DNA of 64,000 nt from Clostridiales bacterium (GTDB lineage: Bacteria > Bacillota > Clostridia > Saccharofermentanales > DTU023), in assembly GCA_004556925.1 (NCBI GenBank), contig SFFI01000010.1, positions 8,512 to 72,511 on the forward strand, written 5' to 3'. Positions 26,674 through 48,549 of this stretch are shown here, piece by piece; within the stretch, counting starts at the first letter, position 1, and every line of letters begins with the position of its first letter. The position numbers and the translations under genes were made by a program. The notes beneath the pieces are model-generated. The model ran no database searches and was not told the DNA's origin. It worked only from the letters and a program-made list of their open reading frames with translations.

Positions 26674-26788
26674 GCCCTTATTATCGTTTTTCCTGATTTC
26701 GATTGTCCAAAATATTCGAAAGCTCTATTCTGAATAGGCTATCGTCAGTAAGTGATTTGCGCCGGTGCTTAGTTGGGAGGCCCCCCTC

Positions 26789-27754: not shown

Positions 27755-27762
27755 GAGGACTT

Positions 27763-28629: not shown

Positions 28630-29627
28630 TGCTTAACATCAATAAGCTTAATTTGTATTACCAGACAGAAGATCGGCCAGTTTGGGCCCTCAGGGACCTT
28701 AACCTGCACTTGGAAGCGGGTAAGTCCTACGGAATTGTGGGAGAATCAGGTTCGGGAAAAACAACTCTTGCTATGGCGATTCTTGGCTTGCTGCCGGCCA
28801 GCGCACAGGTCGAGGGGGAGATTTTCTTTGAAGGCGACAACCTGCTTGAACTGCCAGAAGAGAGCCTACGCCAGCTACGTTGGACCAAGCTAGCCGTTGT
28901 ATTCCAAGCCTCTATGAACAGCTTTAGTCCTGTCCACCGGGTATCAAGTAGCTTTGAGGATATTTACCTGGCCCACCGGCCGCGCGCCTCTAAACGTGAG
29001 GTAGCGGCTAGGGCCAAAGACTTGTTTGACTTGGTTAATCTCGATGACTGGGTGTACCGAGCTTACCCCCATGAGTTATCTGGCGGCATGATGCAAAGGG
29101 TTAATATCGCCTTAAGCCTCATGCTGGAGCCGGACCTCCTGATTATGGATGAAGCAACGACCGCCCTTGATGTGCTTACGGAAAAGCAGATTTTGGAAGA
29201 ACTCCTGGCTATTGAGCCGAAGGTACCTCTGACGCGGATCATGATTACCCACGATGTTTCTGTAGTCGCTAGCTCCTGCCAAGAGGTCTTGGTTATGTAT
29301 GCGGGTTGTCTCTTAGAGCAGGGGCCGGTAGACCAGGTTTTTGATCACCCCTGCCATCCCTATACAGAGGGTCTCTTGTCATCATTCCCCGACCTTAACC
29401 AACGGGGACAGCGGCTGCAAGGTATTCCGGGTAGCCTGCCTGACTTGAGAGAGGAAGGCCACGCCTGCCCCTTTGCCGACCGCTGCCCCCATGCGCAAAC
29501 GCTTTGCTATCAGGAAAAACCGCTTCTGACTCCCATCGCACAAGACCCGCAAACGTCAGCTGGCTGCCTGGTAGACCCAGGGCATTATGTCGCCTGTCAT
29601 TTCCCCCGGAGGTCCCAGGATGAGTAA
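28629..29627 (+). CDS. peptide/nickel ABC transporter ATP-binding protein (OppD type)
   Basis: GESGSGKTT, LSGGMMQRV, and a C-terminal extension with Cys/His cluster (CPFADRCPHAQTLC). Confidence 0.9.
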   Translation: MLNINKLNLYYQTEDRPVWALRDLNLHLEAGKSYGIVGESGSGKTTLAMAILGLLPASAQVEGEIFFEGDNLLELPEESLRQLRWTKLAVVFQASMNSFSPVHRVSSSFEDIYLAHRPRASKREVAARAKDLFDLVNLDDWVYRAYPHELSGGMMQRVNIALSLMLEPDLLIMDEATTALDVLTEKQILEELLAIEPKVPLTRIMITHDVSVVASSCQEVLVMYAGCLLEQGPVDQVFDHPCHPYTEGLLSSFPDLNQRGQRLQGIPGSLPDLREEGHACPFADRCPHAQTLCYQEKPLLTPIAQDPQTSAGCLVDPGHYVACHFPRRSQDE

Positions 29628-30450
29628 TTACGCAGATAGGCCCTTGCTCGAGGTCAACCACCTGGTCAAATACTTTTACGGGGGCCGGCAAAAGGTCATT
29701 AAGGCCGTAGACGGGGTTAGCTTCCAGCTGAGACCAGGGGAGAGCCTGGGCTTAATTGGAGAATCTGGCTGCGGGAAGTCTACCTTAGCTAGGCTCCTAC
29801 TTGGCCTAGAACAGGCGGACAAGGGGGAAATCCTGCTAGAGGGCAAGTCCAACCAAGAACTTTTACGCCAGGACCGCTTGGCCTATTATCGACGCGTCCA
29901 GACGGTCTTCCAGAACCCCTATGATGTCTTCGACCGACGGTTGACCATTGGTGATATCTTGCTACGTCCCCTCCAACTCCACGGCTTAGTGAAGTCTAAA
30001 GTAGAGGGCTTGGCCCGCGCTATGGAAGCCCTGGAACAAGCCGGTCTCCTTCCGGCAGAGGACTTTATCCGCCGTTATCCTTATGAATTATCTGGCGGAC
30101 AGCTCCAGCGTATTGCGATCTTGAGGGCCATGCTCTTGAGCCCCCGCCTTTTGATTGCCGATGAACCGGTCACCAACTTGGACGTATCTGTGCGGGCAGA
30201 AGTGATCAATATGCTCTTGGACCTCAAGGCGGCAAGCCATATGGCCTTGATTTTTATCAGTCATGACCTGGCGACAACCGCTTATATTTCTGACCGCCTC
30301 ATGGTCATGCAAGCCGGGCATATTGTAGAGGCAGGTTCTACCGAAGAAATTCTCGCAGGCCCCCAAGATCCCTATACCCGTTTACTCCTAGACAATTGCC
30401 AGGGACTCAAGCGGTCTCAGCGTCAACGCTCAATGACAGGCAAAGTATGA
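29620..30450 (+). CDS. peptide/nickel ABC transporter ATP-binding protein (OppF type)
   Basis: GESGCGKST, LSGGQLQRI. ATG 29620 follows GGAGG and overlaps the OppD end by 8 nt. Confidence 0.9.
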   Translation: MSNYADRPLLEVNHLVKYFYGGRQKVIKAVDGVSFQLRPGESLGLIGESGCGKSTLARLLLGLEQADKGEILLEGKSNQELLRQDRLAYYRRVQTVFQNPYDVFDRRLTIGDILLRPLQLHGLVKSKVEGLARAMEALEQAGLLPAEDFIRRYPYELSGGQLQRIAILRAMLLSPRLLIADEPVTNLDVSVRAEVINMLLDLKAASHMALIFISHDLATTAYISDRLMVMQAGHIVEAGSTEEILAGPQDPYTRLLLDNCQGLKRSQRQRSMTGKV

Positions 30451-30539
30451 GTGGAGGCCTGCATTAATAAGTGATAATTCTCCAGTGCAGCAGAGTGCGA
30501 ACTGGTTAATTATAAAAAATACGAATGGAGAAATAGTCA

Positions 30540-32117
30540 ATGAAACACATGCTTCAAAAACTAACGAGCCTATTCCTGACCCTCATCCTTATCCTGGGTG
30601 TAGCCGGCACGGCCGTCTTTGCTGAAGAAGAATCAGAACCTGTGGACGGAGGCACTTTTATAGTGGCAATCCCCAGCGAACCCGGAGCCTACATCCCCAG
30701 CTTTGGCAACCCTAATGAGGGTTACATTGTCGTACAAAATATCATGAACAAGCTGGTGAAGCTCAACGTCGATAACGAGGTTGTACCTGACCTCGCAGAA
30801 TCCTGGGAATTTTCCGAGGACGGTAAAACCTTGACCTTCCACCTGCATGAGGGCGTCAAATGGCACGACGGTGTAGATTTTAGTGCAGAGGACGTTGTCT
30901 TTACCTTCCAGAAAGCGATCGAAGTGAAGGGCTTTGCCTCGGGCTTCCTGTCTAAACTCGAAGCTATTAATGCCCCAGACGAAAACACGGTAGAACTCGT
31001 TTTAGCAGAACCTGATGTCTCTATCCTGGGCCGCTTGGCCTGGATGGGCACCTATATCATGCCCAAGCACCTTTATGAAGAGGGCGATGTGCTGGAGAAT
31101 CCCACCAACCAGAACCCCATTGGTACAGGTCCCTTCAAGTTTGTAGAACAGGTCGCAGGCGAAAGCATTACCATAGAGCGCAATGATGAATTTTTCGGTG
31201 AAAAAGCCCACCTGGATAAGGTAATCTTCCGGGTCATCCCTGACCAGATGGCTGCCCACCAAGCCTGGCTAGCTGGCGAAGTCGACGACAACCGCCTAGG
31301 CGTGCCTGCTGCAGAAATGGATACCGTCAAGGAAATGGAGGGTGTCATTAACTTCCCTATGGATTTCCCCAACATGGCAGGTATCCTCTTTAACATGGAA
31401 GAAGGCATTTTTACCGATGTCCGCCTGCGTCAAGCGATTGCTTACGCCATTGATGCCCAAGACCTCTTAACCCGTGTTTACAAGGATGAAGGTACAGTTG
31501 CTAAGTATTTTATCCCCTACCAATTTGCCTGGGCCATCAATGAAGACGCGACTATGCCTGAACATAATCCTGAAAAGGCCATGGAATTGATTGAAGAAGC
31601 CGGCTATGAAAAAGATGAAGACGGCTTCTACTTCACCGTGACCGTCGACACCTATCCTGGCTGGGATAACTTTGTGCCTGTACTCAAGGCCCAATTGGAA
31701 AAATGTGGAATCAAACTTGAGCATAACTCTATGGATGACCCCACCTACGACGCGAAGATCCTCGACGATTTCGACTTTGAAATGACCCTCCTGGGCGGCT
31801 ATATTGGTCCTGATGTCTCTGCTATCGACGCAAAATTCGGTACTGATGGCGGCATGAACTACGGACATTATAGCCGGGAAGAGGTTGATAAACTTCTGGC
31901 TGATGGCCTCAAGGAAACTGACCCTGAAAAACGTGCTGAACTTTATAAGGAAGTACAGAGCTACCTGCAGGAAGACCTGCCCATGGTTTTCTTCCGCAAC
32001 TTCGGTTATACCGGCTTCCTCAAAGACTACATCAAGGGTCACCCCTCGACAGAGGCCCGCAAGACCTCTTCAGAGTATGAGTTAACCTCCGTATGGCTGG
32101 CTCCCAAAGGTGAATAG
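30540..32117 (+). CDS. ABC transporter substrate-binding protein, family 5 (peptide/nickel)
   Basis: 525 aa with signal peptide MKHMLQKLTSLFLTLILILGVAGTAVFA. It is the last gene of the operon. Confidence 0.85.
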   Translation: MKHMLQKLTSLFLTLILILGVAGTAVFAEEESEPVDGGTFIVAIPSEPGAYIPSFGNPNEGYIVVQNIMNKLVKLNVDNEVVPDLAESWEFSEDGKTLTFHLHEGVKWHDGVDFSAEDVVFTFQKAIEVKGFASGFLSKLEAINAPDENTVELVLAEPDVSILGRLAWMGTYIMPKHLYEEGDVLENPTNQNPIGTGPFKFVEQVAGESITIERNDEFFGEKAHLDKVIFRVIPDQMAAHQAWLAGEVDDNRLGVPAAEMDTVKEMEGVINFPMDFPNMAGILFNMEEGIFTDVRLRQAIAYAIDAQDLLTRVYKDEGTVAKYFIPYQFAWAINEDATMPEHNPEKAMELIEEAGYEKDEDGFYFTVTVDTYPGWDNFVPVLKAQLEKCGIKLEHNSMDDPTYDAKILDDFDFEMTLLGGYIGPDVSAIDAKFGTDGGMNYGHYSREEVDKLLADGLKETDPEKRAELYKEVQSYLQEDLPMVFFRNFGYTGFLKDYIKGHPSTEARKTSSEYELTSVWLAPKGE

Positions 32118-34019: not shown

Positions 34020-35744
34020 TTATTGGGCCACTGTGTAGAGGGAGTAGAAGTAGTCCTTTCTGGCCATCAGCTGGTCAAAGGTCCCTTCTTCTGCAACCCT
34101 ACCATTTTTCAGCACGACAATGCGGTCATAAGCGCTGAGCAGGGAGGCCTCCAAGCGGTGGGTGATGACCAGCCTTGTGAGATCCTCTAGGTCGAGGATC
34201 GACCGGGTAATTTTGGCGGAGGTTTCCGCATCTAAGGCCGAGGTAGCTTCATCTACCAGGAGGATGGAGTTTTTATGCAGGAGGCTGCGGGCGATGGCAA
34301 TCCGCTGACGCTCACCACCAGATAGTTGGACGCCGTTTTCGCCGCAGAGATACCCTTGTCCCTTGGAGGCAATGAGCTGGTCCAAGCCCGCGGCCTGGAT
34401 GGCCTGGTTCACTTCGTCTTGAGGAAAGTCTCTATAGAGGGTGATGTTGTCCCTGATGCTAGCATTAAAAATAAAGACATTTTGTTGAATTAAGGTCAGC
34501 AAGTCGTACAGGGAGTGGGTGCTGATACTCCGCAATTCTTGCTGATCATAGAAGATCTCCCCCCGATAATTGCGGTCTGCCCCCATGAGGAGCTGGAAAA
34601 GCGTGGACTTACCACTTCCAGATGCCCCTACCAAGGCTACGCACTCACCGGCAGCCACCTTTAAATCGAGGCCGCGCAGGACCTCATCTTCCTCGTCTCC
34701 TTGGTCATAAGCGTAATGCAGTTGACGAATATCCAAACTATCCTGCAGGACTTTATCTACCACCTGGCCTTCATCCTCAACATTTTCTTTGAGGATGTTT
34801 TCCATCTTGTGCATAAGGCTAGCTGCTGCCTGGCGCTTGGCCCAGAGATCTGGCAGCTCTTGGATCGACCGCAAGAGGATCCCTGTTAAATTAACGAAAG
34901 CCATGAGCATGCCTACGGTGAGGGCGGACTGGCTATGAATGATCAGGGCACCGATCAGGAAGACCCCCATCTGGGCGCTGATCCCTGCCGTAATGCTGAT
35001 CATCTGGACCCAGGCTTCCGCCCGCCGCTTGGCACGTTTAGTGCCTTCTAGTTCCTGGTTGCTCTCAGCAAATTGTTGGAATAGGGCTTCTTCCGCCTGG
35101 AAAGCCTTGATAACTGAAAAACCACTCAGGCTATCCTTGAGTTGGGCAATAAAGGCGGCATTCTGGTCAGAACTGGCCTTTTCCCACTGGGCCACCTTGC
35201 TCCCGCTCAAGAGAGCTGCCAGGATTGGCAGCGACAAAAGCCCAATCGCTGTCAGGGTCATGAGGGGATTGTAGTAGAGCATGAGGGCTAGGCTTGTGCA
35301 AAAGACTAGGGCGTGTGAGACTAGGACAAAACTTCTCTCTAGATAATTTTGCTCGATGCTGGCAACATCATTGGATAAGGCCGACAAGTAGAGGGAAGTA
35401 TCCTCCCGCGCAAAAGAGGCCAGGTTTTTCTGGGTCAGGTCTTGGTAGACCCGATTTTTGTATTGGATCATGGCCCGCTGCAGGAAGTTGGGCAAAACGT
35501 GCCGCCTGAGGCTCAAGGTGATAACTACCAAAGCTACGAGCCCCAAAGTCAGCCAGGAGAGCAAGGGGAGGGGCAGGGCCGTTGGGCTGCCTACCGCGGC
35601 ATCCATGAGTTGCTGGATGAGCCATGACAGGAGGACATTTAAGAGCCCCATGATGACCTCGCAGCAGAGACAAAGGGTCCAATTCAGCTTGTTGTGCTGA
35701 AACAAGCTAGCTGAAAGCTTATTTTTCTTCTGCATTTTCTTCAT
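34020..35744 (-). CDS. ABC exporter, fused TMD-NBD (MsbA/multidrug type)
   Basis: Six TMs then GASGSGKST, LSGGERQRI, ILLVDEATS. ATG 35744 follows AGGAGG and lies 26 nt inside the upstream regulator gene. Confidence 0.85.
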   Translation of the reverse strand: MKKMQKKNKLSASLFQHNKLNWTLCLCCEVIMGLLNVLLSWLIQQLMDAAVGSPTALPLPLLSWLTLGLVALVVITLSLRRHVLPNFLQRAMIQYKNRVYQDLTQKNLASFAREDTSLYLSALSNDVASIEQNYLERSFVLVSHALVFCTSLALMLYYNPLMTLTAIGLLSLPILAALLSGSKVAQWEKASSDQNAAFIAQLKDSLSGFSVIKAFQAEEALFQQFAESNQELEGTKRAKRRAEAWVQMISITAGISAQMGVFLIGALIIHSQSALTVGMLMAFVNLTGILLRSIQELPDLWAKRQAAASLMHKMENILKENVEDEGQVVDKVLQDSLDIRQLHYAYDQGDEEDEVLRGLDLKVAAGECVALVGASGSGKSTLFQLLMGADRNYRGEIFYDQQELRSISTHSLYDLLTLIQQNVFIFNASIRDNITLYRDFPQDEVNQAIQAAGLDQLIASKGQGYLCGENGVQLSGGERQRIAIARSLLHKNSILLVDEATSALDAETSAKITRSILDLEDLTRLVITHRLEASLLSAYDRIVVLKNGRVAEEGTFDQLMARKDYFYSLYTVAQ

Positions 35745-36813
35745 GTTGTTCCTCCTGAATTTGTTTCCAAAGCGTATAGCTGGCATCAGCTGACAAGGCG
35801 AGTAGGGTCTCGCCGATAGCCTCTAAGCTATTTTGACCAAAGTCGTCATACACAAAGTAATTGTCTTCTAAAAAGAAATGCGGCAAGCCCTGCAGGTTAA
35901 AGTTAGGTTCTTGATCAAAACGCAGGGCGGCTGTTTTTGCTTCTTGCAGAGCCTGAGCAGTCTGGTCTATCTGGCCCAGCCCTTGGAGGATAACCGCTTC
36001 ATGTGTTTTATAAATTACTAGGAGCTTATCGAAAATAGACACCCGGTCGGGCTGGAGGAAGGAATCCAAGAGAGGCCAGGCGCGCTGTAAAATATCGCCC
36101 GCCTCCTCTAAGCGTCCCAAGTGATAGTAGGCCTGGGCGAAAGTAAAGCAAACTTGGAAGAATTTAGAGACCAGGACATAAAATTCCTGGGATAGTAGGG
36201 GGAGGGCCTGGTCACTTTGCCCCAGGTAATGAACCATGGTTTCCGCAATGGCGAAGTCATTAATGCTGTAACTATTATTCTTCTTGAGTATCTCTAGGGC
36301 TTCTGTATATTTTCCTACTTCAATCAAGAGTTTCGCGATGATGTTCTCTACAACCTCCTGATTCACATGTGGATTATTATTTTGCTCAATAAAGTGTATG
36401 GCCTTGCGGTAGAGGAAGATGGCCCGCTCGAGGGAAGGCTTATCTGTCTCCTCTATGCCTTTTAGTTGGAAAAAACGTGCGGAATCAAAAAGTACTTGAA
36501 AATCATTGGGATAGCTTTTGAGGATGTCTTTAACTTCCTCTAATCCGTCTTCATACTCCTTAGCCCGTGTCAGGTCTTTGAGCCTTGTAAGACACATTTC
36601 CCGATGCTGGCTGTTGAGCTCAAAGCCTGTGAGGGCGTCCAGAGATACTTGGAAAGTTTGGGCCAGGCGGAGGAGAAGAGGAAGTTCTGGGCAATTGGCA
36701 CCCGATTCCCACTTGGACACCGCCCCCACGGACACCCCCATTTTCTCTGCTAATTTCTCCTGGGTCAATCCCTGCTTATTGCGGTAGTATTTGATGTTAT
36801 TTCCTAAATCCAT
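35719..36813 (-). CDS. XRE-family HTH regulator with TPR-like C-terminal domain (RNPP-like architecture)
   Basis: NIKYYRNKQGLTQEKLAEKMGVSVGAVSKWESG HTH, followed by about 290 aa of helical repeats. ATG 36813 follows GGAGGT. Confidence 0.75.
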   Translation of the reverse strand: MDLGNNIKYYRNKQGLTQEKLAEKMGVSVGAVSKWESGANCPELPLLLRLAQTFQVSLDALTGFELNSQHREMCLTRLKDLTRAKEYEDGLEEVKDILKSYPNDFQVLFDSARFFQLKGIEETDKPSLERAIFLYRKAIHFIEQNNNPHVNQEVVENIIAKLLIEVGKYTEALEILKKNNSYSINDFAIAETMVHYLGQSDQALPLLSQEFYVLVSKFFQVCFTFAQAYYHLGRLEEAGDILQRAWPLLDSFLQPDRVSIFDKLLVIYKTHEAVILQGLGQIDQTAQALQEAKTAALRFDQEPNFNLQGLPHFFLEDNYFVYDDFGQNSLEAIGETLLALSADASYTLWKQIQEEQHEENAEEK

Positions 36814-36991
36814 GTGTACCTCCATGTATTCCCTCTACATTGTTCCTTCTATGTCTTCGCTCGAGGTCCAGTAAATTATGTAGGCCTCTTGGTCCCGAAA
36901 CAATAGGTCGCAAGTAAAGTTAATCAAGAAATATTTTTACTTCTAGTCAACTCTACGGAGGAAAGAATCATATCTGAGAGGAGCACATCGA

Positions 36992-37447
36992 CTGAGAAGA
37001 AGCGAGCCTTGGCGGCAAATCAAGAAAACGAGCACTTTGCCACCAAAGACACAGCCGAGTAAAAAATTTATATTGGGTGCAATTCCGAGAAAAGGCGATT
37101 TTGCCGCCAATGACTACGCAGTTGAGGAAGCGAGCCTTGGCGGCAAATCAAGAAGACTAGCACTTTGCCACCAAGGACTCAGCCGAGTTAAAAATTTATA
37201 TTGGGTGCAATTCCGAGAAAAAGCGATTTTGCCGCCAATGACTACGCAGTTGAGGAAGCGAGCCTTGGCGGGAAATCAAGAAAACAAGCACTTTGCCACC
37301 AAGGACTCAGCCGAGCAAAAATTTTATATTGGATGCAATTCCGATAAAAGGCGATTTTGCCGCCAAGGGCTATTCATCTGGGGGCAAGAGCATTGGTGGC
37401 AAATCAAGAAAACAAGCATTTTGCCACCAAGGGCTACGCAGTTGAGG
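36992..37447. repeat. 3.5 copies of a 128-bp tandem repeat with internal hairpins
   Basis: Unit starts at 37001, 37129, 37257 and a partial unit at 37385. Each unit holds CTTGGCGGCAAA-16 nt-TTTGCCACCAAG plus a third TTTGCCGCCAA. Confidence 0.95.
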
Positions 37448-37463
37448 CTAGGTGATCTCAAAA

Positions 37464-37500
37464 TGTAAAAAAGAGATGATCTGTGTCTCAGATCATCTCT
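37464..37500 (-). terminator. intrinsic terminator of the hyp-containing operon
   Basis: 12-bp stem AGAGATGATCTG / CAGATCATCTCT with a 5-nt loop. On the minus strand it is followed by TTTTTTAC. Confidence 0.8.
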
Positions 37501-37523: not shown

Positions 37524-37595
37524 GTTTGCCAGAAGCCTCGGGTTTGTCAGAAGTCTCGGGTTTGCCAGAAGCCTCAGGTTTGCTAGAAGGCTTAG
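37524..37595. repeat. four 18-bp tandem repeats between the hypA stop and its terminator
   Basis: gtttgccagaagcctcgg / gtttgtcagaagtctcgg / gtttgccagaagcctcag / gtttgctagaaggcttag. Confidence 0.9.
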
Positions 37596-37617: not shown

Positions 37618-37962
37618 TTAAATGACTTTAATATCCTTGACCGTTAACTGGTTGCCAGTTACTAGGTAGGTGTTCAGGCTACCGCAGTGGGGGCAGGTCT
37701 TGCCATAGGCGGTTGTTCGGAAGGTTTCCTTACAGTCCTGACAATAGGATTTGCCTTCTATGATCACCATGTCCAGCTCGCAATCTTGCATGTATTGGGT
37801 TTTCTTGATGGCCCACTTGTAGCAGTCGCGGAAGTATTCTGGAATGATGGTGGAGACTTCTCCGACCTCCAGGGTTACCCCCACGACCTTTTGCACGTCG
37901 TGGGCTTTGGCGGTGGCCTCCACCATGTCAATGAAGTGCATGACCAGACCTAACTCATGCAT
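37618..37962 (-). CDS. hypA: nickel metallochaperone HypA
   Basis: 114 aa with MHE N-terminus and zinc ribbon CQDC-x12-CPHC. Start moved to Met57 of the listed ORF. Its ATG overlaps the upstream TGA (ATGCATGA). Confidence 0.85.
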   Translation of the reverse strand: MHELGLVMHFIDMVEATAKAHDVQKVVGVTLEVGEVSTIIPEYFRDCYKWAIKKTQYMQDCELDMVIIEGKSYCQDCKETFRTTAYGKTCPHCGSLNTYLVTGNQLTVKDIKVI

Positions 37963-40843
37963 GGTGAGCGTTTCCTGTATAGGGATTTTCCCGGTTGAAT
38001 GCCTTGTTGTCACGCTTATAGGCTTTGCGCTTTTTCCGCATGGCTCGGGCTTCTGCACTTCCAGCATGGGCCAGAATCTTGAGACCGCGCTTGATGGTAT
38101 ACCGCATGATGGGTCCCACTTTTTCTTCACCGGCGATCATCTTGGTCATTTCAGGATGGTCGCGGTAAATATGGATGGCATCAAATTCGCAGCGGGTGGT
38201 GCAGAGACCGCAGCCGATGCACTTGTTTGCATCTACCTCAGCAGCCCCACAGCCCAGACAGCGGCCTGTTTCGATTTTGACTTGTTCTTCGGTCAGGGTC
38301 AGCTGGCGATCACGGAAGGGATCGGTCACTGACGCATCCTGGGGCTCTTCTTGGCGTCCGGCCGTATCGTAGGAGTTGGGTAAGCTAATATCATCCCTAT
38401 TGAAGGGCTTATAGTTATGCCGCTCCCTGCCGATAGTCATGTGGCCGTCCTGGACGTAGCGGTGTAAGGACTCGGCGACGAAGTGGCCTTGGGCGATGGC
38501 ATCAATGACAAATTTAGGTCCGGTGAAGTCATCACCGCCTACAAAGATATCAGGCTCGTCGGTCTGGAAGGTGAAGGAGTCTGCCATGGGGTATTTGCCG
38601 TGGTGGAATTTAACCTTGCTACCGTCCAGCAAGCCGTCCCAAATAATATCCTGACCAATGGCGAAAATGACGAAGTCTGCCTCTAGCTCTTTGAGGTCGT
38701 TTTCATCGTATTGGGGAGAGAAGCGGCCGCTTTCGGGGTCAAACACCTGGGTGCAGCGCTTGAGCTTAATGCCTTTAACCTGGTCCTGGTCGTCAACTAG
38801 CACTTCCAGGGGGCCCCAGCTATTCAAAATCTGGACATTCTCCGCCTTGGCCTCAGCAATTTCCGACTCGCTGGCTGGCATTTCTTCACGTTTTTCCAGG
38901 GAAATCATGGTGACTTCCGCAGCGCCGCGCTTGGCCGCAGTCATGGCGCAGTCAATCGCAACATTTCCGCCGCCGATGACGACAACCTTGCCTGTGAAAG
39001 GCTCATGGCCCTTGGTGAGAGCGTCTTGTAGATAGTGGACAGCGTAATCCGTGCCCTTGGCGGTTTCATTTGGAATGCCGGGTAGTTTGCCACCCTGGCA
39101 ACCCACAGCGACGTAGAAGGCTTGGTAGCCCTCATCCCGCAGCTGGTCCAGGGTCACATCGCGGCCCACCTGGCAGTTGGTCTTGATTTCTACACCTAGC
39201 TCACGGATGACGTCAATTTCTGCCTCAATGACATCTTTTTCCAGCTTATAAGAAGGAATGCCATAGGTCATCATGCCGCCTGGCTTGTCGTTCTTTTCGA
39301 AGACGACAGGTTTGTAGCCCAGGAGGGCTAGATAATAAGCGCAGGACAGCCCCGCAGGACCAGCACCAATAATGGCGATCTTTTCATCAAAACCCCCGTA
39401 GACCTTGGGTACAACCTTGGCGGGGATATAGCGATTTTCTGCCTTCAGTTCCAGATCTGAGACAAATTTTTTCACTGCATCAATAGAGATAGGCTCATCT
39501 ACAGTACCGCGGGTGCAAGCATCCTCACAAGGCTTATTACAGATCCTACCGCAAACAGCAGGGAAGGGGTTCTCCTTCTTGATTATCTCCAGGGCCTCAT
39601 CATATTTCCCTTCGTGGGCTTTCTTCAAATAGCCTTGAATGGAGATATGGGCGGGGCAAGCGGCCTTACAGGGGGCAGTACCACTTTCATAGGTATTAGT
39701 CAGGCGAGCAGTATCCCGGTAGTTTTCGTCCCAAGCATATTTGCCCCAGAAAATATTGTCGGGTAAGACAGCCTTGGGATAGTGTTGTTCTGAGCCATCC
39801 TTTTTACAGAGCTTTTGTCCCAGCTTCACAGCTCCGCAAGGACAGATTTCCGCGCACCCCCCGCAGGCGACACAGTTCTCTTTAGTCACTTTGGCAGTGT
39901 AGGCGCTCCTGACCATATTAGGTGTATTAAAGAGGAGGGCGGTTCTTAGGGCATAGCAAATCTTGACGTCGCAGTTGCAGATATCAAAGATCTTATTCTC
40001 GCCATCAATATTGGTGATCTCATGGACAAAGCCGTTGTCTTCTGCTTTCTTCATGATGCGGAGGGCTTCGTCTGCATCAATATAATGGGCGCGATCTGTT
40101 TCGACCGCGTAGTCTGCCATATCCCCGACCTGGATGCACCAGTTTTCCGAGTCGTCTGCACAGCCTTGGCCCAGCTTTTTCATGGTGGCCCGGCAGGAGC
40201 AGATCCCGCAAGAAATATGGCCTTCATATTTTTTTAGCCAATAGGAGATTTCTTCCAGGTCTACAGATTGATTTTCAAAACCGATGGCCTTTTCTACGGG
40301 GATGACGTGCATGCCAATGCCCGATCCTCCCGGAGGCACCATTTGGGTGACCCCTTGCAGGGGAATAAAGGTCATCCGTTCAAAAAAGTTGCCGGCCTCT
40401 GGGTGGCGGTCTACCCGGTCTTGACTAGAGTTAAAGAGTTCAGCAGCGCCAGGAACGAAGTAGGGAACCCGGTAACGCTTAATGCGAGGCTTGTCCTTGA
40501 GTTCGCCATAATGGTCGTAGTTGTCACCATAGTCGTACTCAATAATGCCGATGTAGGACATTTCGTCCAAGAGCTTTTGCAGTTCTGCTGCATCAAAGCG
40601 AGGATTCTTTTTCAAGAGTTCTTCAAAGGTATAGAAAGCCCGCAATTTCATGGTGTTGGCAATTTCCACCATATCGTCGGTGAGAAGTTCGCGCAGGCCC
40701 CAGTATTCGGGGTCTTCCGTAGTTAGACCCTTAATCTTATGGGGGAGACAGTCGGTAATTTTACGCCCCAGTTTGGCATAGGGCTTTTTGAGAACGGCTT
40801 CTCCCTGGTATTTTGATCGGTGTGTCTTAAATTGTTCAGGCAT
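37955..40843 (-). CDS. 962-aa multi-domain Fe-S flavoprotein (Cys-rich N-terminal region + ferredoxin motif + GltD/PreT/AegA/YgfK-like NAD(P)H-FAD module + C-terminal 2x[4Fe-4S])
   Basis: CVACGGCAEICPCG; CGRICNKPCEDACTRG; IAIIGAGPAGLSCAYYL; VVVIGGGNVAIDCA; CLGCG..CIGCGLCTTRC. Its ATG directly abuts the hypB stop. Confidence 0.75.
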   Translation of the reverse strand: MPEQFKTHRSKYQGEAVLKKPYAKLGRKITDCLPHKIKGLTTEDPEYWGLRELLTDDMVEIANTMKLRAFYTFEELLKKNPRFDAAELQKLLDEMSYIGIIEYDYGDNYDHYGELKDKPRIKRYRVPYFVPGAAELFNSSQDRVDRHPEAGNFFERMTFIPLQGVTQMVPPGGSGIGMHVIPVEKAIGFENQSVDLEEISYWLKKYEGHISCGICSCRATMKKLGQGCADDSENWCIQVGDMADYAVETDRAHYIDADEALRIMKKAEDNGFVHEITNIDGENKIFDICNCDVKICYALRTALLFNTPNMVRSAYTAKVTKENCVACGGCAEICPCGAVKLGQKLCKKDGSEQHYPKAVLPDNIFWGKYAWDENYRDTARLTNTYESGTAPCKAACPAHISIQGYLKKAHEGKYDEALEIIKKENPFPAVCGRICNKPCEDACTRGTVDEPISIDAVKKFVSDLELKAENRYIPAKVVPKVYGGFDEKIAIIGAGPAGLSCAYYLALLGYKPVVFEKNDKPGGMMTYGIPSYKLEKDVIEAEIDVIRELGVEIKTNCQVGRDVTLDQLRDEGYQAFYVAVGCQGGKLPGIPNETAKGTDYAVHYLQDALTKGHEPFTGKVVVIGGGNVAIDCAMTAAKRGAAEVTMISLEKREEMPASESEIAEAKAENVQILNSWGPLEVLVDDQDQVKGIKLKRCTQVFDPESGRFSPQYDENDLKELEADFVIFAIGQDIIWDGLLDGSKVKFHHGKYPMADSFTFQTDEPDIFVGGDDFTGPKFVIDAIAQGHFVAESLHRYVQDGHMTIGRERHNYKPFNRDDISLPNSYDTAGRQEEPQDASVTDPFRDRQLTLTEEQVKIETGRCLGCGAAEVDANKCIGCGLCTTRCEFDAIHIYRDHPEMTKMIAGEEKVGPIMRYTIKRGLKILAHAGSAEARAMRKKRKAYKRDNKAFNRENPYTGNAHHA

Positions 40844-41515
40844 TTATTTCCTCCAAGTCTCGATGGCTTGATCCAGCCAAGCGGCGGCCTTATCCATACC
40901 TTCGCCCGTAAGTGCGGAAACAGGGAAAATTTGGATCTTGGGATTGCGTTTTTGCAAATATTGGGTGAATTTCTCTAGATTAAAATCGAAGTAAGGGAGA
41001 ACGTCAATTTTATTGACCAAAACTACATCTGCCTTTTCAAACATTAAGGGATATTTGAGGGGCTTGTCATCTCCTTCGGGTACGGAGAGGATAACCAGGT
41101 TCTTGCTGGCACCCGTATCAAACTCTGCCGGGCAGACCAGATTGCCGACATTCTCTAAAATATAGAGGTCATAGAGATCTCCCCCCACTTCGTCCAAGCC
41201 TTGTTTTGTCATCCCTGCATCCAGGTGGCACATGCCGCCCGTATGCAGCTGGATGGTGCGGACCCCTGTCGCTTCGGCAATGGTCCGGGCATCTACATCA
41301 CTATCGATGTCAGCTTCCATGACTGCAATCTTATATTTATCTTGCAACTGAGGGATCAAACTCTTCAGGACGGTTGTTTTACCAGACCCGGGGCTAGACA
41401 TGACGTTAAGCAGGAAACTACCTTGCTTTTTGAGGCTTTCGCGTAACTCCTGGGCCTTTTGGTCATTGTCTGCATAAATGCTCTCTTTGACTTCAATTAT
41501 TCTAATTTCATCCAT
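40844..41515 (-). CDS. hypB: nickel-binding GTPase HypB
   Basis: SSPGSGKTT P-loop, TGGMCHLDA Cys-His metal site, ENVGNLVCPAEFD, NKID. There is no N-terminal His-rich or CxxCGC extension. Confidence 0.9.
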   Translation of the reverse strand: MDEIRIIEVKESIYADNDQKAQELRESLKKQGSFLLNVMSSPGSGKTTVLKSLIPQLQDKYKIAVMEADIDSDVDARTIAEATGVRTIQLHTGGMCHLDAGMTKQGLDEVGGDLYDLYILENVGNLVCPAEFDTGASKNLVILSVPEGDDKPLKYPLMFEKADVVLVNKIDVLPYFDFNLEKFTQYLQKRNPKIQIFPVSALTGEGMDKAAAWLDQAIETWRK

Positions 41516-41541
41516 GATGTCTTGATCTTTCTTTTATAAAT

Positions 41542-41569
41542 CCAGCTTCAGACCAGGGTCTGAAGCTGG
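41542..41569 (-). other. 11-bp-stem hairpin in the 98-nt spacer between the flavoprotein gene and hypB
   Basis: CCAGCTTCAGA-ccaggg-TCTGAAGCTGG with no clear U-tract (ATTTATAAAAG on the minus strand). It may be a partial terminator or an mRNA stabiliser. Confidence 0.4.
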
Positions 41570-41613
41570 TTCCCAAAGGGGATCTTGGCTATGGGATATT
41601 GGTTTCTGGGATC

Positions 41614-42993
41614 TTAGGCTGGGAAGAAGCGTCTCACCAGATCTCTAGAGTATTCTACGGTTTCTTCCATATCACCAAAGGCCATGACTTCACCAGCGTA
41701 GAAGGTGTTCTTTTCACCCTGCATGCCCTCTACTTTATCGTACCAGCCAGCGGCATAGTCCTCAGAGCTGACATGGGGGAAATAGTACCAGTCGTCAATC
41801 CGTTCGATCTTTTCGACGGGCAGGCCAGATTTTTCCATATCCTTGAGGGTTTTTTCCTTGGCCTCTTCAAAGGGGACATCCTCCATCCCAGCATGGTTGC
41901 GTAGGGTGAAGGTGACTAGGGGCTGAGGGCCGCAGTCAGGCCAGCGGTGGTAGAAAACCATCATGTGGCCGCGGGTCTCTGGTGTCATATTTTGGAAGTA
42001 ATAGTAGGAAATATCAGGGGCCTTGTCTTCTGCGGGACGGACCGCCATGGTGAAATACTTCTTGGGGGTAATCTTGGAGAAGAGCTCTGTTTCTTGGTCT
42101 GTGGGGTCACCGTAATTCAAGAAAAGCTCTAGGGGGGTGCAGATGATCAGCTTATCAAAGCGCTCGGTTTTCTGGCCGTTGATTGTGACCAATACGTGGT
42201 CTTCTTCCCGCTGAATGGCTGTAATTTCACTGTTAAGCTGGGCCGGATGTTTGAGGTGGGTATTGACCCCTTCCCAAATGGACTGGGTGCCGGTTTTCCA
42301 GGTCCAGAGTTTACCAGTAGACAGGAATTGACGGACCGTAAAGGCGTCCAAATATTTTAAAACATAGGCAGCCGGAATTTCGCTGAAGTAGCCATAACCA
42401 AAGGCGGTGAAGGGGCCCTTCCAAATGAGTTCTACATCTTCGCACTTGTTCAATTTCAAGAAGTCGGCGAAAGGCATAGACAGGTCTTTCAGATTGGGGT
42501 TCTCACCTTCAATATGGGCCAGTTTCATTTCGGGGGAAGGGCAGGGACCTTCATAACGCCCTTGGGCGACACCCCTGTGGCCATTGACATCATAACCGCG
42601 ATATTTGGTTTCTAGCAGCTTGCTGAGTTTACGAAGCTTCCATAATTTTTTTAACATCTCAGTGGGCTTAGTTTTAATCGGGGTACCGTCCGTATTCATG
42701 AATTTCCGCCCCATGGGAGGGCCATCCTTGTGGGTGGTGCCCCCAAATTCTTCGCATTCAGCTACGGCAAAATAGGTGTCGCAACCCATAACCGCACCCA
42801 TTTCAATGGTACGGTCCTCCCATTGGCCGTTTTGGTTTTTAACGGCCATCTTGGGGGAGGTGCACTTGCCGCCGACCCGGTCAGCCTTTTCATAAATGAC
42901 ATAATTGTCGTAGCCATTTTTCTCCAGATACATGGCTGCGGAAGTTCCGGCGGGGCCGCCACCGATAATGCAGATGCGTTGATTTTTGTCCAT
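41614..42993 (-). CDS. FAD-dependent oxidoreductase (amine oxidase / desaturase-like fold)
   Basis: ICIIGGGPAGTSAAMYL ... YEKADRVGGK dinucleotide-binding signature; 459 aa. AAAGGAG lies upstream of ATG 42993. Confidence 0.7.
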   Translation of the reverse strand: MDKNQRICIIGGGPAGTSAAMYLEKNGYDNYVIYEKADRVGGKCTSPKMAVKNQNGQWEDRTIEMGAVMGCDTYFAVAECEEFGGTTHKDGPPMGRKFMNTDGTPIKTKPTEMLKKLWKLRKLSKLLETKYRGYDVNGHRGVAQGRYEGPCPSPEMKLAHIEGENPNLKDLSMPFADFLKLNKCEDVELIWKGPFTAFGYGYFSEIPAAYVLKYLDAFTVRQFLSTGKLWTWKTGTQSIWEGVNTHLKHPAQLNSEITAIQREEDHVLVTINGQKTERFDKLIICTPLELFLNYGDPTDQETELFSKITPKKYFTMAVRPAEDKAPDISYYYFQNMTPETRGHMMVFYHRWPDCGPQPLVTFTLRNHAGMEDVPFEEAKEKTLKDMEKSGLPVEKIERIDDWYYFPHVSSEDYAAGWYDKVEGMQGEKNTFYAGEVMAFGDMEETVEYSRDLVRRFFPA

Positions 42994-43150: not shown

Positions 43151-43581
43151 ACGAATTTAACGATAGCGCTCTCTTGTTTTGCAGATTTTGAACTCGTTTT
43201 TTATATGATTGCTATTCTGGTGGTGTTGTTGCAACCATATTTGCGCATTTTCTAAAATTAAGTCAGCTTGCCAATTTACATGACTGCGCCTATGTGTTAG
43301 AGTCATTTTAATATGGGGCAGGAGTTGCTTATATTTATACGTTCGCTCGAGGTGGTTCCGCTCATTTTCATAATAGACATTCTAGCGTTACGGCTATTGC
43401 AACTCTTATACTTATCCTAATTAAAAATTATGATCTTTAGCTTATCTAGGTCAAGGTATCCTTGACAGCGCAACTCAAGCACAACTTGCTTCCTTAAGTT
43501 TGCCTCTTGCCTTATGCTGGCGGCAGCTAGTTCAGAAGGTTGAACAAACTGCTAAAATACAATCAAGTAGGGAGACTTAAG

Positions 43582-44577
43582 ATGCAATTCAACATGACAA
43601 AGATTGGCCAGAGAATCTCAGAACTCAGAAAAGCCAAGAATATGACGCAAATGCACCTGGCAGATCAAATGGGTATTAGTTACCAGGCTGTGAGCAATTG
43701 GGAGCGTGGAGAAACGATGCCGGACATTAGCAAACTCCCCGAACTCGCAACGATTTTTGACTGCAGCATCGACGATATCCTCGGCAACTCAAGGGCTAGT
43801 GAAGTAGTGGAGTATGTGACTACGGGAAATGCGCCAGCGGATGCTCTCAGCGGCGGAGAAATTGTGGATCTGGCGCCCCTCTTAGCACCTCAGACCACAG
43901 AGCGTCTCGTCGCACAAAGTGGCCAGGGTAGAGAAGTGGCTGCTTTTGATATCCAGGATTTGGTGGAACTCTCACCTTTCGTCGAAAGCCGCTTTCTAGG
44001 TGAGCAACTCTTAAAATTTCCACTTGAGAAAGTAACCTCGGATATATTAGCCCAAGCTGCACCCTTTCTTCATAAGGAACATATAGATCTTCTTGTGGAC
44101 CGTTTGCTTGCTTCTAACCAGGCAATGTGTTTGGACCAACTTTCTACATTAGCCCCTTTTATAGGGCGCGAAAAACTGAATCAGCTAGTGGATAGATTTG
44201 TAGAATCAGGCCAGGAAGTAGACTTGGAATATCTGTGTTCTTTGGCGCCCTTTGTCAGCCAGACAAAGCTTGACCAGCTTGTAGAAAAGTTTATTGCTTC
44301 TGACCAAGAAGTACACTTGGAATTTTTACCGTCACTTGCCCCCTTTGTGAGTCAAGCAAAGTTAAACCAACTTTTTAACCAAGCCATGGCTGCTGAAAAG
44401 ATGAATGAGGACATACTGGTGAGCCTAGCTCCTTTCATAAGCCAGAATATCCTGGAACAAAGCATACTTGACCATCTTGACTCCCTTAAATCTAAAAGAA
44501 TACTGGTGAGTTTGGCGCCTTTTATAGATCCCAAAGTTTTACAATTCCTGCTTACCCATGGATCAAACGAGGCCTAG
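43582..44577 (+). CDS. XRE-family HTH regulator with about eight ~30-aa LAPF repeats
   Basis: The HTH is IGQRISELRKAKNMTQMHLADQMGISYQAVSNWERG. Repeats run LAPF(V/I)SQxKLxQLVxxF.... ATG 43582 follows GGGAGA. Confidence 0.75.
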   Translation: MQFNMTKIGQRISELRKAKNMTQMHLADQMGISYQAVSNWERGETMPDISKLPELATIFDCSIDDILGNSRASEVVEYVTTGNAPADALSGGEIVDLAPLLAPQTTERLVAQSGQGREVAAFDIQDLVELSPFVESRFLGEQLLKFPLEKVTSDILAQAAPFLHKEHIDLLVDRLLASNQAMCLDQLSTLAPFIGREKLNQLVDRFVESGQEVDLEYLCSLAPFVSQTKLDQLVEKFIASDQEVHLEFLPSLAPFVSQAKLNQLFNQAMAAEKMNEDILVSLAPFISQNILEQSILDHLDSLKSKRILVSLAPFIDPKVLQFLLTHGSNEA

Positions 44578-47469: not shown

Positions 47470-48549
47470 TTACGCTTTCTTATATTGCCTGTTTGCCTTA
47501 GACCATTCGAGCACCCAAGGCAGGTGAAAAATGGCATAGCCAGCCGGCATGTTTTTTCGTAGCTGCATAAAAGTATCTAAGAGCAAGCTGCCATAGTCCT
47601 CTTGAGCCAGGTAATCTGAGTGGTCCAAGCGGTAACGCACGACTTGTAACAGCTGACCTGCCAAAGAGGGCTCCATCTGGTCGTTATCCATAACTTCTGC
47701 CTGCATTAAAGCCTGCAGGGCTTCCTCCCGGCGGCCTGTCTTCTCACAGCAGATGGCAAGTTTATGGAGGATCATCAAGGTGGGGTGCTGCTTAGAGAAC
47801 CAGGCGTAGGCATCCTCATAGCGCCCAATCTCAATCCAGGCCGAGGCGGTATTGTAGCCGATGGCTTGCAGGGCTCCCTCATCTTGTAAATCCTCAGCGA
47901 GTCGCTGTCCCACACGATAGTGCCGTTCCATATTGGGTAAATCTTGTAGGTTACAATAGGTGTTACCAAGGTGAAGCTTTGCTTTAAGCATAATCCTCAC
48001 TTTACCCTCGCGGCTAGCAAAGTTATAGGCCACCTGCAGGGTATCTATAGCCGCTGAATAATTCCCGGTTTTATACTCTGCAATACCCAGCATCAGGTAG
48101 GTGTAAGCGTCGGGCAGAAGTCGTACCGCTTCAGCCTCCTGGCCCTGTAAGATACGCTGCAAAGCCAGCTGACGTGTGTCCATACAGGACTCGAGTGCGG
48201 TCTCTAATGGCTTTTGGGACGTCAATAATGCCAAATCAAGCCAAGCAGGGACAGCCTCATAACGTTTAAGCTCTATGTCCTTTAGAAGCGCGTTTAGCTT
48301 AGCAAACCTACCCTCAAACAGCGCTTCCCAGCTTTGATCGGCGAGTTCAGCAGCCTCAGCTTCTATGGCCTTATCACTTTTCAAGCCCAGGCGTTCTAAC
48401 AGAAGCCGCAAAATATCTTCAGACGGCTCTGCCTTACCCGTCTCAATTTTTGACAAATAGGAAACGGTACAAATTCCTTTGCATAACTTTGCCTGACTCC
48501 AATGGCGTTGGATTCGAATGCGGTAAATGAGATAACCTTGGTAATTCAT
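47470..48549 (-). CDS. HTH regulator with TPR C-terminal domain (Rgg/PlcR/RNPP-like architecture)
   Basis: The HTH is IYRIRIQRHWSQAKLCKGICTVSYLSKIETGKAEPS, followed by TPR-like helices (..YKTGNYSAAIDTLQVAY.., ..IEIGRYEDAYAWF..). Confidence 0.7.
   Translation of the reverse strand: MNYQGYLIYRIRIQRHWSQAKLCKGICTVSYLSKIETGKAEPSEDILRLLLERLGLKSDKAIEAEAAELADQSWEALFEGRFAKLNALLKDIELKRYEAVPAWLDLALLTSQKPLETALESCMDTRQLALQRILQGQEAEAVRLLPDAYTYLMLGIAEYKTGNYSAAIDTLQVAYNFASREGKVRIMLKAKLHLGNTYCNLQDLPNMERHYRVGQRLAEDLQDEGALQAIGYNTASAWIEIGRYEDAYAWFSKQHPTLMILHKLAICCEKTGRREEALQALMQAEVMDNDQMEPSLAGQLLQVVRYRLDHSDYLAQEDYGSLLLDTFMQLRKNMPAGYAIFHLPWVLEWSKANRQYKKA

Follow-up and report, generated by a model that had tools for sequence, protein, structure and literature searches.

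Described systems related to the locus

A 64,000-nt stretch of contig SFFI01000010.1 of a Clostridiales bacterium (hereafter the window, within which all coordinates are numbered) was analyzed around four minus-strand open reading frames (ORFs) at 42993-37618. These encode, in order, a 459-aa flavin adenine dinucleotide (FAD) protein, HypB, a 962-aa iron-sulfur (Fe-S) flavoprotein, and HypA. The locus is a new operon version of a published kind, that of the putative isoprene reductase IsrA and its HypA/HypB partners, and is set apart by its first gene, which is predicted to encode an isomerase of the polyunsaturated fatty acid isomerase (PAI) type.

The closest described system is the isoprene-induced five-gene operon of Acetobacterium wieringae ISORED-2, which encodes IsrA, two HypA, one HypB, and a ferredoxin (Kronen et al., 2023, mSystems, PMC10134865). 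IsrA is a 901-aa protein with an unannotated N-terminal region of ~270 aa, where a Cys6 site with two CxC motifs (C180/C182 and C254/C256) is found, followed by a ferredoxin motif at 289-300, domain II of dihydropyrimidine dehydrogenase (DPD), an FAD/NAD(P)H module, and a C-terminal Fer4 domain at 848-877 (PMC10134865). The Cys6 site, or "cluster V", lies at the end of a predicted substrate tunnel and was proposed to hold nickel, while it was also likened to double-cubane or P-cluster sites (PMC10134865). In a neighborhood network of the "clade 9" homologs of IsrA (n = 988), the co-occurrence was 0.73 for HypA and 0.56 for HypB; in ISORED-2, both a [NiFe]-hydrogenase and hypCDEF are missing, and the other nickel enzymes have maturases of their own (PMC10134865). 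Terpenes and other unfunctionalized dienes or hydrocarbons were suggested as substrates of the homologs, electron bifurcation was discussed, and an oleate hydratase beside the A. woodii homolog was mentioned in passing (PMC10134865). Two preprints of 2026 still term IsrA putative.

Other relatives share one part of the locus each. The proteins NfnB, NfnABC, and StnABC, the small subunit of glutamate synthase, and domains I-III of DPD have in common with aa ~380-800 of the 962-aa protein a helical domain with two [4Fe-4S] clusters and the Rossmann domains for FAD and NAD(P)H. Unlike the 962-aa protein, all of these enzymes have no counterpart of its N-terminal 310 aa and no metal chaperones. 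The HypA and HypB that serve [NiFe]-hydrogenase maturation, and urease in Helicobacter, belong to the same chaperone families as the pair in the window and carry the same metal-binding motifs, and the HypB of the window is of the short, H. pylori-like type. In contrast to hydrogenase maturation, the client in the window lacks large-subunit motifs, the locus lacks hypCDEF, and the HypA, although a family member, is a divergent paralog.

For the fatty acid side, the PAI of Propionibacterium (Cutibacterium) acnes (PDB 2B9W and related entries) aligns with the 459-aa protein over the full length and has the same FAD-binding N-terminus. Reviews agree that trans-10,cis-12 conjugated linoleic acid (CLA) is what it makes from linoleic acid. 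The P. acnes isomerase has no such partners and CLA builds up there, whereas in the window and the related subclade the gene shares an operon with those for a predicted reductase and nickel chaperones. The CLA-HY/CLA-DH/CLA-DC/CLA-ER enzymes of Lactobacillus plantarum and the Butyrivibrio "CLA reductase" have the same outcome as the one proposed here, namely the saturation of a linoleic acid double bond in gut bacteria by way of conjugated or activated intermediates. In contrast, the Lactobacillus pathway, which involves neither Fe-S clusters nor nickel, has hydroxy, oxo, and enone intermediates, and its enzyme families are entirely different from those of the window. To our knowledge, the Butyrivibrio CLA reductase has no agreed gene, and reviews offer no sequence data on it. 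A rumen study of 2026 describes the isomerase sequences as better characterized than those of the reductases.

Affiliation and conservation of the 962-aa protein

Three landmarks of the published IsrA description were found in the window protein, each shifted by an identical 35 residues: the first CxC motif (215/217 versus 180/182), the second (289/291 versus 254/256), and the ferredoxin motif (324 versus 289). The two CxC motifs are 74 residues apart in both proteins, and their cysteines were invariant among 120 close and 34 diverse homologs. As in IsrA and "clade 9", the size is ~900-960 aa, an unannotated Cys-rich N-terminal domain comes first, and the domain order is the same; the loci likewise belong to strict anaerobes, have hypA and hypB as near-universal neighbors, and include no hydrogenase genes. 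Judged by its architecture, motif positions, and neighborhood, the 962-aa protein very probably belongs to the HypAB-linked IsrA-type family. The two operons also differ. While the isr operon has two hypA genes and a separate gene for an N-domain "ferredoxin", the window operon has one hypA and no such gene, and it starts with a PAI-type isomerase gene that the isr operon lacks. Whereas the isr operon belongs to an acetogen and is linked to isoprene, the window type is hosted by Clostridia of the gut and rumen and is predicted to act on a conjugated fatty acid.

A first-pass annotation of the window had presented the 962-aa protein as a candidate new metal-dependent redox enzyme. Its central inference is sound but rediscovers a published hypothesis, as the family, its hypAB neighborhood, and a Cys-rich site proposed for nickel had all been described in 2023 (PMC10134865). 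What is new here is the identity of the 459-aa protein, which sequence comparison indicates to be a PAI homolog.

The most conserved part of the 962-aa protein was its N-terminal core (aa 100-300), with a mean column identity of ~0.9 among 120 homologs of at least 64% identity, which is above that of the flavin module. In a set of 34 diverse homologs (alignment A2), the residues C215, C217, R218, C236, E268, H274, C289, N290, C291, and C296 remained invariant down to 34% identity, C228 was kept in 30 of the 34, and all of the ferredoxin-type cysteines were kept. The cysteines of the C-terminal region were also conserved among homologs. Full-length homologs of 950-970 aa number in the thousands and are annotated at best as "FAD-dependent oxidoreductase"; a single 90%-identity cluster of the family contained 5,810 member sequences. 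With a profile of the N-terminal domain, 1,093 clusters (50% identity) were matched at E <= 1e-10 and 2,545 when the limit was relaxed to E <= 1e-3; among these were both fused forms of ~850-945 aa and stand-alone forms of ~390-430 aa.

Pfam domains were found in the rest of the protein: a Fer4_20 (PF14691) and a Pyr_redox_2 (PF07992) domain of the GltD/NfnB type, and a C-terminal Fer4 domain. No Pfam or NCBIfam family matched aa 1-315. The four-part architecture described in the first-pass annotation was recovered with one correction, in that the C-terminal region contains one CxxCxxCxxxC and one CxxC instead of two full [4Fe-4S] motifs. The NCBIfam scores fell below the respective cut-offs for PRK12771 (444.5 against 516), gltA (281 against 472), YgfK (251 against 835), and AegA (245 against 1003). 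The protein was hence not placed at the equivalog level in the GltD, NfnB, AegA, or YgfK families, with which only the module at aa ~380-800 is common.

Structural comparisons gave a similar picture. An AlphaFold model of the full-length protein, built from a deeper alignment, had a pLDDT of 91.2 and a pTM of 0.91. Its top Foldseek matches in the PDB were NfnABC, StnABC, NfnI, and DPD (best E 6e-44, at most ~565 aligned columns), and all matches were confined to the Nfn/Stn/DPD/GltD module. PDB entries matched by sequence included 9bov (E 2e-92), 8oh5, 5jca, and 4ylf, while the profile of the N-terminal domain matched only the ferredoxin motifs of polyferredoxins. A model of the N-terminal domain by itself, from a shallow alignment of 20 sequences, reached a pLDDT of 58.6 and gave weak winged-helix matches (best E 0.024); being of low confidence, it supports no conclusion on the Cys-rich core. 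No solved relative of this core was detected by Foldseek with the low-confidence domain model or by sequence search of the PDB.

Linkage of hypA and hypB to the putative reductase gene

In the window, the genes for both chaperones are in start/stop contact with the gene for the 962-aa protein, as the first-pass annotation had reported. The TAA of hypB abuts the ATG of the 962-aa ORF (GGAGGAAATAAATG), and the TGA of the latter overlaps the ATG of hypA, with an overlap of 8 nt (ATGCATGA). Profile searches confirmed that the two small ORFs encode members of the HypB and HypA families. HypB scored 242.2 bits against the equivalog TIGR00073, about two-fold above the cut-off of 121.2, and carries the motifs GSGKTT, GGMCH, NVGNLVCP, and NKID; since an N-terminal CxxCGC or His-rich region is missing, it is of the short type. 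HypA matched PF01155 over its full length with 103.7 bits (cut-off 28.9) and has an N-terminal MHE and a CQDC-x12-CPHC motif.

The conservation of this arrangement was surveyed in genomes representing one species each, which were scanned with an N-terminal domain alignment (A1); at least 600 stretches matched. Because A1 covers the N-terminal domain alone, ordinary GltD and Nfn proteins were excluded. All counts of genome loci given below (n = 80) refer to the best 80 of the at least 600 species-level matches. Nearly all of these carriers were rumen or gut anaerobes, with representatives from the Clostridia, Oscillospiraceae, Acutalibacteraceae, Lachnospiraceae (Pseudobutyrivibrio ruminis and P. 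xylanivorans), Erysipelotrichaceae, Christensenellales, and Anaeroplasma.

Of the 80 loci, 71 had a hypA gene within 1.5 kb of that for the reductase, and in 66 it lay directly downstream (<=300 bp); it was absent in three of the 70 loci that were fully assessable. For hypB, the corresponding numbers were 50 of 80 within 1.5 kb and 42 of 80 directly upstream. An all-against-all clustering of neighboring ORFs in the 80 loci identified HypA and HypB as the sole widely conserved neighbors, while all others varied, and neither a [NiFe]-hydrogenase nor hypCDEF nor urease was among the conserved neighbors. The linked copies also retained their signatures. Among the linked HypA, 70 of 71 start with Met-His-Glu and 71 of 71 have the CxxC...CxxC zinc site; among the linked HypB, the P-loop was found in 55 of 57, the CH motif in 52, NVGNLVCP in 56, and NKxD in all 57. 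The hypB-ORF-hypA arrangement is far beyond chance, and the recurrent co-occurrence on which the first-pass annotation had made its proposal depend was borne out. These results support a functional tie of the chaperone pair to the 962-aa Fe-S flavoprotein.

The first-pass annotation had left it open whether the chaperones serve the 962-aa protein or its 459-aa partner. As HypA and HypB accompany the larger gene in many loci without a 459-aa gene, the target appears to be the 962-aa protein, and the 459-aa protein, whose family is an FAD-only enzyme in its solved structure (PDB 2B9W), was rejected as a nickel client. The linkage was already visible in two homolog clusters at 66-67% identity, of which one has the order hypB, oxidoreductase, hypA and the other the order 459-aa gene, oxidoreductase, hypA.

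Pfam scans covering practically every large ORF in the window gave no hydrogenase, hypCDEF, urease, carbon monoxide dehydrogenase (CODH), or LarA gene, in agreement with the first-pass annotation. The RxCGxC and DPCxxC motifs were likewise absent from the 962-aa ORF, as had been noted, and no NiFeSe_Hases Pfam match was obtained. A hydrogenase-like large subunit was rejected as an identity for the 962-aa protein.

Some loci of the survey include additional conserved genes. In seven species, including Pseudobutyrivibrio (L041, L054, L056, L058, L062, L072, and L082; for example, L058 4479-9996, from Pseudobutyrivibrio xylanivorans DSM 14809), the IsrA-like gene is preceded by a block that encodes a MinD/CooC-like ATPase, two HGD-D proteins resembling 2-hydroxyacyl-CoA dehydratase, a BcrAD/BadFG-type activase, and, with a weak match to CdhC (acetyl-CoA synthase beta), a protein of 239 aa. 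The block may activate substrates in a different way or serve as a second system for metallocluster maturation. In some Lachnospiraceae loci, a DUF5692 protein (348 aa, 471 bits) is encoded between hypB and the IsrA-like gene (L052 8890-9936 and L083 8850-9896), which matches the co-occurrence of DUF5692 reported by Kronen et al. (PMC10134865).

A predicted PAI-type isomerase gene linked to the putative reductase gene

The first gene of the operon had been described as encoding a GxGxxG flavoprotein. The motif (GGGPAG) and a Pfam Amino_oxidase match were found, but the protein is more specific in kind than a generic amine oxidase. Among PDB sequences, the 459-aa protein matched 2B9W far above all others (E 1.3e-118) and over its full length, in two stretches (aa 2-140 and 169-457), with an identity of 46.5% over 458 columns. 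Although deposited as a "putative aminooxidase", 2B9W is the PAI of P. acnes. The residues Arg88 and Phe193 of PAI, which reportedly form its carboxylate gate, align to R96 and F223 of the 459-aa protein, and both were invariant in 14 homologs (alignment A3). The 459-aa protein is thus a homolog of the PAI-type fatty acid isomerase and is predicted to make a conjugated diene from a methylene-interrupted one.

The linkage between the isomerase and the reductase was found from both directions. Of the 80 genome loci, 14 have a PAI-like gene no more than 4 kb from that of the reductase, and at least five arrangements were seen. The order PAI, hypB, reductase, hypA was shared by the window and the loci L006 (SFGY01, Clostridiales bacterium W0P9.013, the closest relative of the window organism), L008, L013, L025, and L085. 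Other loci had PAI, reductase, hypA (with a 20-bp gap) or PAI, hypA, reductase, or had PAI on the opposite strand or set apart from the reductase by additional redox genes. In the search from the isomerase side, a gene with the reductase N-domain was found next door in 57 of 80 PAI-anchored metagenome loci, mostly 20 bp downstream; as these loci are highly redundant and mostly come from one abundant human-gut lineage, the independent cases are far fewer than 57. In a neighbor-joining tree, the PAI-linked reductases were mainly in one subclade, which includes the window protein. The literature searched contained no paper that links PAI, CLA, or biohydrogenation with HypA/HypB or IsrA.

Two groups of loci had unusual compositions. 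The rumen Clostridia metagenome-assembled genomes L022 (5628-16825) and L033 (2770-16236) contain two IsrA-like paralogs and PAI in one cluster, together with a 513-aa amine-oxidase/desaturase-like flavoprotein and a 400-aa FNR-like FAD/NAD/2Fe-2S reductase. In the metagenome loci L089, L118, L119, and L156, PAI homologs 77-82% identical to the 459-aa protein had no IsrA-like gene, hypA, or hypB within 8 kb. The L089 and L119 contigs look high in GC, with many overlapping ORFs on both strands, which suggests a recent transfer of the isomerase gene between unrelated hosts.

A proposed biohydrogenation module

Isoprene and CLA are both unactivated conjugated dienes, and a two-step pathway of a PAI-type and an IsrA-type enzyme is therefore chemically coherent. 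The operon may serve the reductive detoxification or use of polyunsaturated fatty acids, that is, biohydrogenation. The 459-aa FAD enzyme would bring the methylene-interrupted cis,cis double bonds of a substrate such as linoleic acid into conjugation, and the 962-aa protein would then reduce one double bond of the resulting diene to give a monoene. Electrons are predicted to pass from NAD(P)H to the NfnB-like FAD, the two Fer4_20 clusters, and the ferredoxin-type clusters (C324-C346 and C862-C885), and from this chain of ~four [4Fe-4S] clusters to an N-terminal site formed by C215/C217/C228/C236/C289/C291/C296 and H274. HypB, as the GTPase, and HypA would act as dedicated maturation factors that load nickel into this site, and both of their genes are translationally coupled to the reductase gene.

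Such a module, composed of an isomerase and a HypAB-matured reductase, is the best explanation of the locus that we can offer, with about an even chance of being correct. Its parts differ in strength. The loading of nickel into the 962-aa protein by HypA and HypB is probable, while a conjugated fatty acid made by the adjacent isomerase is a plausible substrate that we hold slightly less than evenly likely. A further reading, that the PAI-linked, HypAB-dependent subclade of the IsrA type is the missing CLA reductase of gut and rumen biohydrogenation, acting through a new nickel-iron-sulfur site able to hydrogenate unactivated conjugated C=C bonds and including the trans-10 pathway tied to milk-fat depression, is offered tentatively and is held less likely than not.

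Several observations weigh against these proposals. HypA scored 76.9 bits against its NCBIfam equivalog (TIGR00100), under the cut-off of 88.1, and an adjacent hypB was missing in 25 of the 70 assessable loci. The likeness to IsrA was drawn from the published description rather than from a direct alignment with VUZ27132.1, and the literature contained no metal analysis or enzyme assay that we could find for any member of the family. No PAI gene was nearby in 66 of the 80 reductase loci, so the family overall must have other substrates or unlinked isomerases, and the fatty acid reading applies at most to a subclade or else needs such unlinked isomerases. In addition, 11 assessable PAI-anchored metagenome loci had no adjacent reductase gene. 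Older purifications of the Butyrivibrio "CLA reductase" reportedly gave a protein of ~53-60 kDa, which differs from the 107.5 kDa of the window reductase and is nearer to the 52.6 kDa of the PAI-like protein. Finally, carriers of the Butyrivibrio group have Ech-type [NiFe]-hydrogenases and hypABCDEF elsewhere in the genome (PMC4478896; bioRxiv 2021.10.08.463653); other nickel clients are hence not claimed to be absent there, and HypB may be shared.

If HypA and HypB do load nickel into the 962-aa protein, it would be an addition to the short list of nickel enzymes, and if the CLA reductase reading is also true, it would represent a new class of these with a defined and nutritionally important substrate. 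The hydrogenation of unactivated conjugated alkenes has no characterized biological catalyst at present, and anaerobes of the gut and rumen carry members of the family very commonly. The link to a PAI-type isomerase provides the first concrete and cheaply testable substrate for the family, and it makes the reductase a gene candidate for the reductive step of fatty acid biohydrogenation, a decades-old question. This step shapes the CLA, trans-fat, and stearate of milk and meat, as well as what becomes of linoleic acid from the diet in the human gut.

Alternative explanations

The alternative that survives best retains a HypAB-matured IsrA-type reductase but gives it a substrate other than a fatty acid, such as a terpene, a carotenoid-like compound, a sorbate-type diene, or a plant hydrocarbon, with the PAI-like flavoprotein isomerizing or desaturating the same compound. 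Kronen et al. propose terpenes and other unfunctionalized dienes for IsrA homologs (PMC10134865), the PAI fold lies within the amine-oxidase/phytoene-desaturase superfamily, and the identity to the characterized PAI is no higher than 46.5%. Most family members also lack a PAI neighbor, and the L022 and L033 clusters add a second desaturase-like flavoprotein and the FNR-like reductase. On the other hand, the similarity to PAI is full-length, the residues aligned to Arg88 and Phe193 are invariant, and the carriers inhabit the rumen and gut, where the biohydrogenation that polyunsaturated fatty acids undergo is dominant and genetically unassigned. This alternative appears unlikely for the window operon, though it deserves serious weight.

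Less probable again is a role of the chaperones other than nickel insertion, in which HypA/HypB paralogs would insert zinc, cobalt, or iron, or would use GTP to help assemble or gate an Fe-S cluster of iron only in the N-terminal domain, such as a double-cubane or P-cluster-like one. It is favored by the sub-threshold equivalog score of HypA and by the G3E GTPases as a whole, which serve several metals and of which the CobW, ZigA, and MeaB families gave weak matches. The resemblance of the Cys6 site to double-cubane and P-cluster sites (PMC10134865) points the same way, as does the lack of an unambiguous nickel transporter, the nearby Opp/Nik-type ABC system being below all cut-offs. Against this stand the conserved nickel signatures, namely the Met-His-Glu of HypA (70/71) and the CH...C of HypB (52-56/57), and the two-fold margin of HypB over its equivalog cut-off.

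It is very unlikely that the 962-aa protein is an Nfn/Stn-type bifurcating transhydrogenase or a ferredoxin:NAD(P) oxidoreductase with no organic substrate, whose N-terminal domain would serve solely in electron transfer or, as a winged helix, in regulation. By sequence and by fold, the best matches were indeed NfnABC, StnABC, and NfnI, the N-terminal head looked winged-helix-like in the low-confidence model, and bifurcation has been discussed for the family (PMC10134865). However, these matches span only aa ~380-870, every NCBIfam cut-off of the Nfn/GltD type was missed, and the most conserved part is the N-terminal core with its unusual invariant site of two CxC motifs; a metal-chaperone pair and a linked isomerase would also be unexpected for a plain transhydrogenase.

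An incidental adjacency, in which hypA and hypB mature a [NiFe]-hydrogenase, urease, or other nickel enzyme encoded elsewhere, would be compatible with the view being limited to 64 kb of the genome and with the Ech hydrogenase and hyp clusters of some carrier lineages (butyrivibrios), but it was rejected and is for practical purposes excluded, as 71 of 80 species-level loci, from Clostridia, Erysipelotrichaceae, Anaeroplasmatales, and other groups, share the linkage while the other neighbors vary, the linked chaperones keep their nickel signatures, start and stop codons are in contact on both sides of the reductase gene, hypCDEF was never in the cluster among the 80 loci, and ISORED-2 has the operon without a hydrogenase or hypCDEF while its other nickel enzymes have maturases of their own (PMC10134865).

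Operon organization and neighboring features

The features of the operon are listed in the table below. All four ORFs were found exactly where the first-pass annotation had placed them.

Table. Positions of the genes, protein regions, and nucleic acid elements of the operon within the window
Feature	Coordinates	Strand	Basis or remark
Sigma-70-like promoter match TTGACC-16-CATAAT, the best one upstream of the isomerase gene	43427..43454	-	Consensus match only
459-aa FAD protein, PAI homolog, 52.6 kDa	41614..42993	-	ORF and profile matches
Hairpin with 12-bp stem, in the 98-nt spacer that separates hypB from the isomerase gene	41542..41569	-	Folding and sequence reading
hypB, 223 aa, G3E GTPase nickel chaperone	40844..41515	-	TIGR00073 and motifs
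962-aa IsrA-family Fe-S flavoprotein, 107.5 kDa, predicted conjugated C=C reductase	37955..40843	-	Domain matches, Cys landmarks
N-terminal region, aa 1-310: winged-helix-like head (aa ~20-130) and Cys-rich core	39914..40843	-	Candidate Ni/Fe-S catalytic site
Ferredoxin-type CxxCxxCxxxCP (C324, C327, C330, C334; C346), aa 311-385	39689..39913	-	Invariant Cys
Fer4_20 and FAD/NAD(P)H module, predicted electron entry	38444..39688	-	PF14691, PF07992, PDB and Foldseek matches
C-terminal region, aa 801-962: CxxC (862, 865), CxxCxxCxxxC (875-885), helical tail	37958..38443	-	PF00037 at aa 869-890
hypA, 114-aa nickel metallochaperone	37618..37962	-	PF01155; internal ATG of a longer mechanical ORF
Intrinsic terminator at the operon end	37462..37500	-	12-bp stem, 5 GC pairs, then TTTTTT

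The spacer hairpin had been reported with an 11-bp stem; the hairpin was found, and 12 bp were counted. It has a minimum free energy of -29.8 kcal/mol (z = -4.5), and none of 200 shuffled sequences folded equally well. It could be a partial terminator or an mRNA-stabilizing element. The terminator reported after hypA was present, with its stem and T run at 37500-37472. The promoter candidate matched 10 of 12 consensus positions and ranked at the top of the scan. An Rfam scan of the window identified three tRNAs only, with no riboswitch at the operon.

A five-gene ABC importer of the Opp/Dpp/Nik family is encoded at 26765-32117 (+) and consists of a 525-aa SBP_bac_5 binding protein with two permeases and two ATPases. 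With NikA models the binding protein scored 168 and 154 bits, and with Opp4A it scored 210 bits. Because the Opp, Dpp, and Nik models were all below their cut-offs, the substrate (nickel or peptides) is ambiguous.

Two groups of repeats were observed near the 3' end of the operon. An 18-bp repeat (3.7 copies) is located at 37524-37589, between the hypA stop codon and the terminator. Separately, a 128-bp tandem repeat (3.4 copies, 90% match) occupies the intergenic region downstream of the operon at 36999-37432, and each of its units contains a GGCGGCAAAATCGCC hairpin followed by a T run.

Additionally, three XRE-type helix-turn-helix (HTH) proteins with long C-terminal repeat or TPR regions are encoded around the operon, at 43540-44577 (+), 35719-36825 (-), and 47470-48549 (-). 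The first of these genes is divergent from the isomerase gene and is a possible regulator of the operon. A second contig (L166), which encodes an identical 962-aa protein, has a similar HTH gene in the same position.

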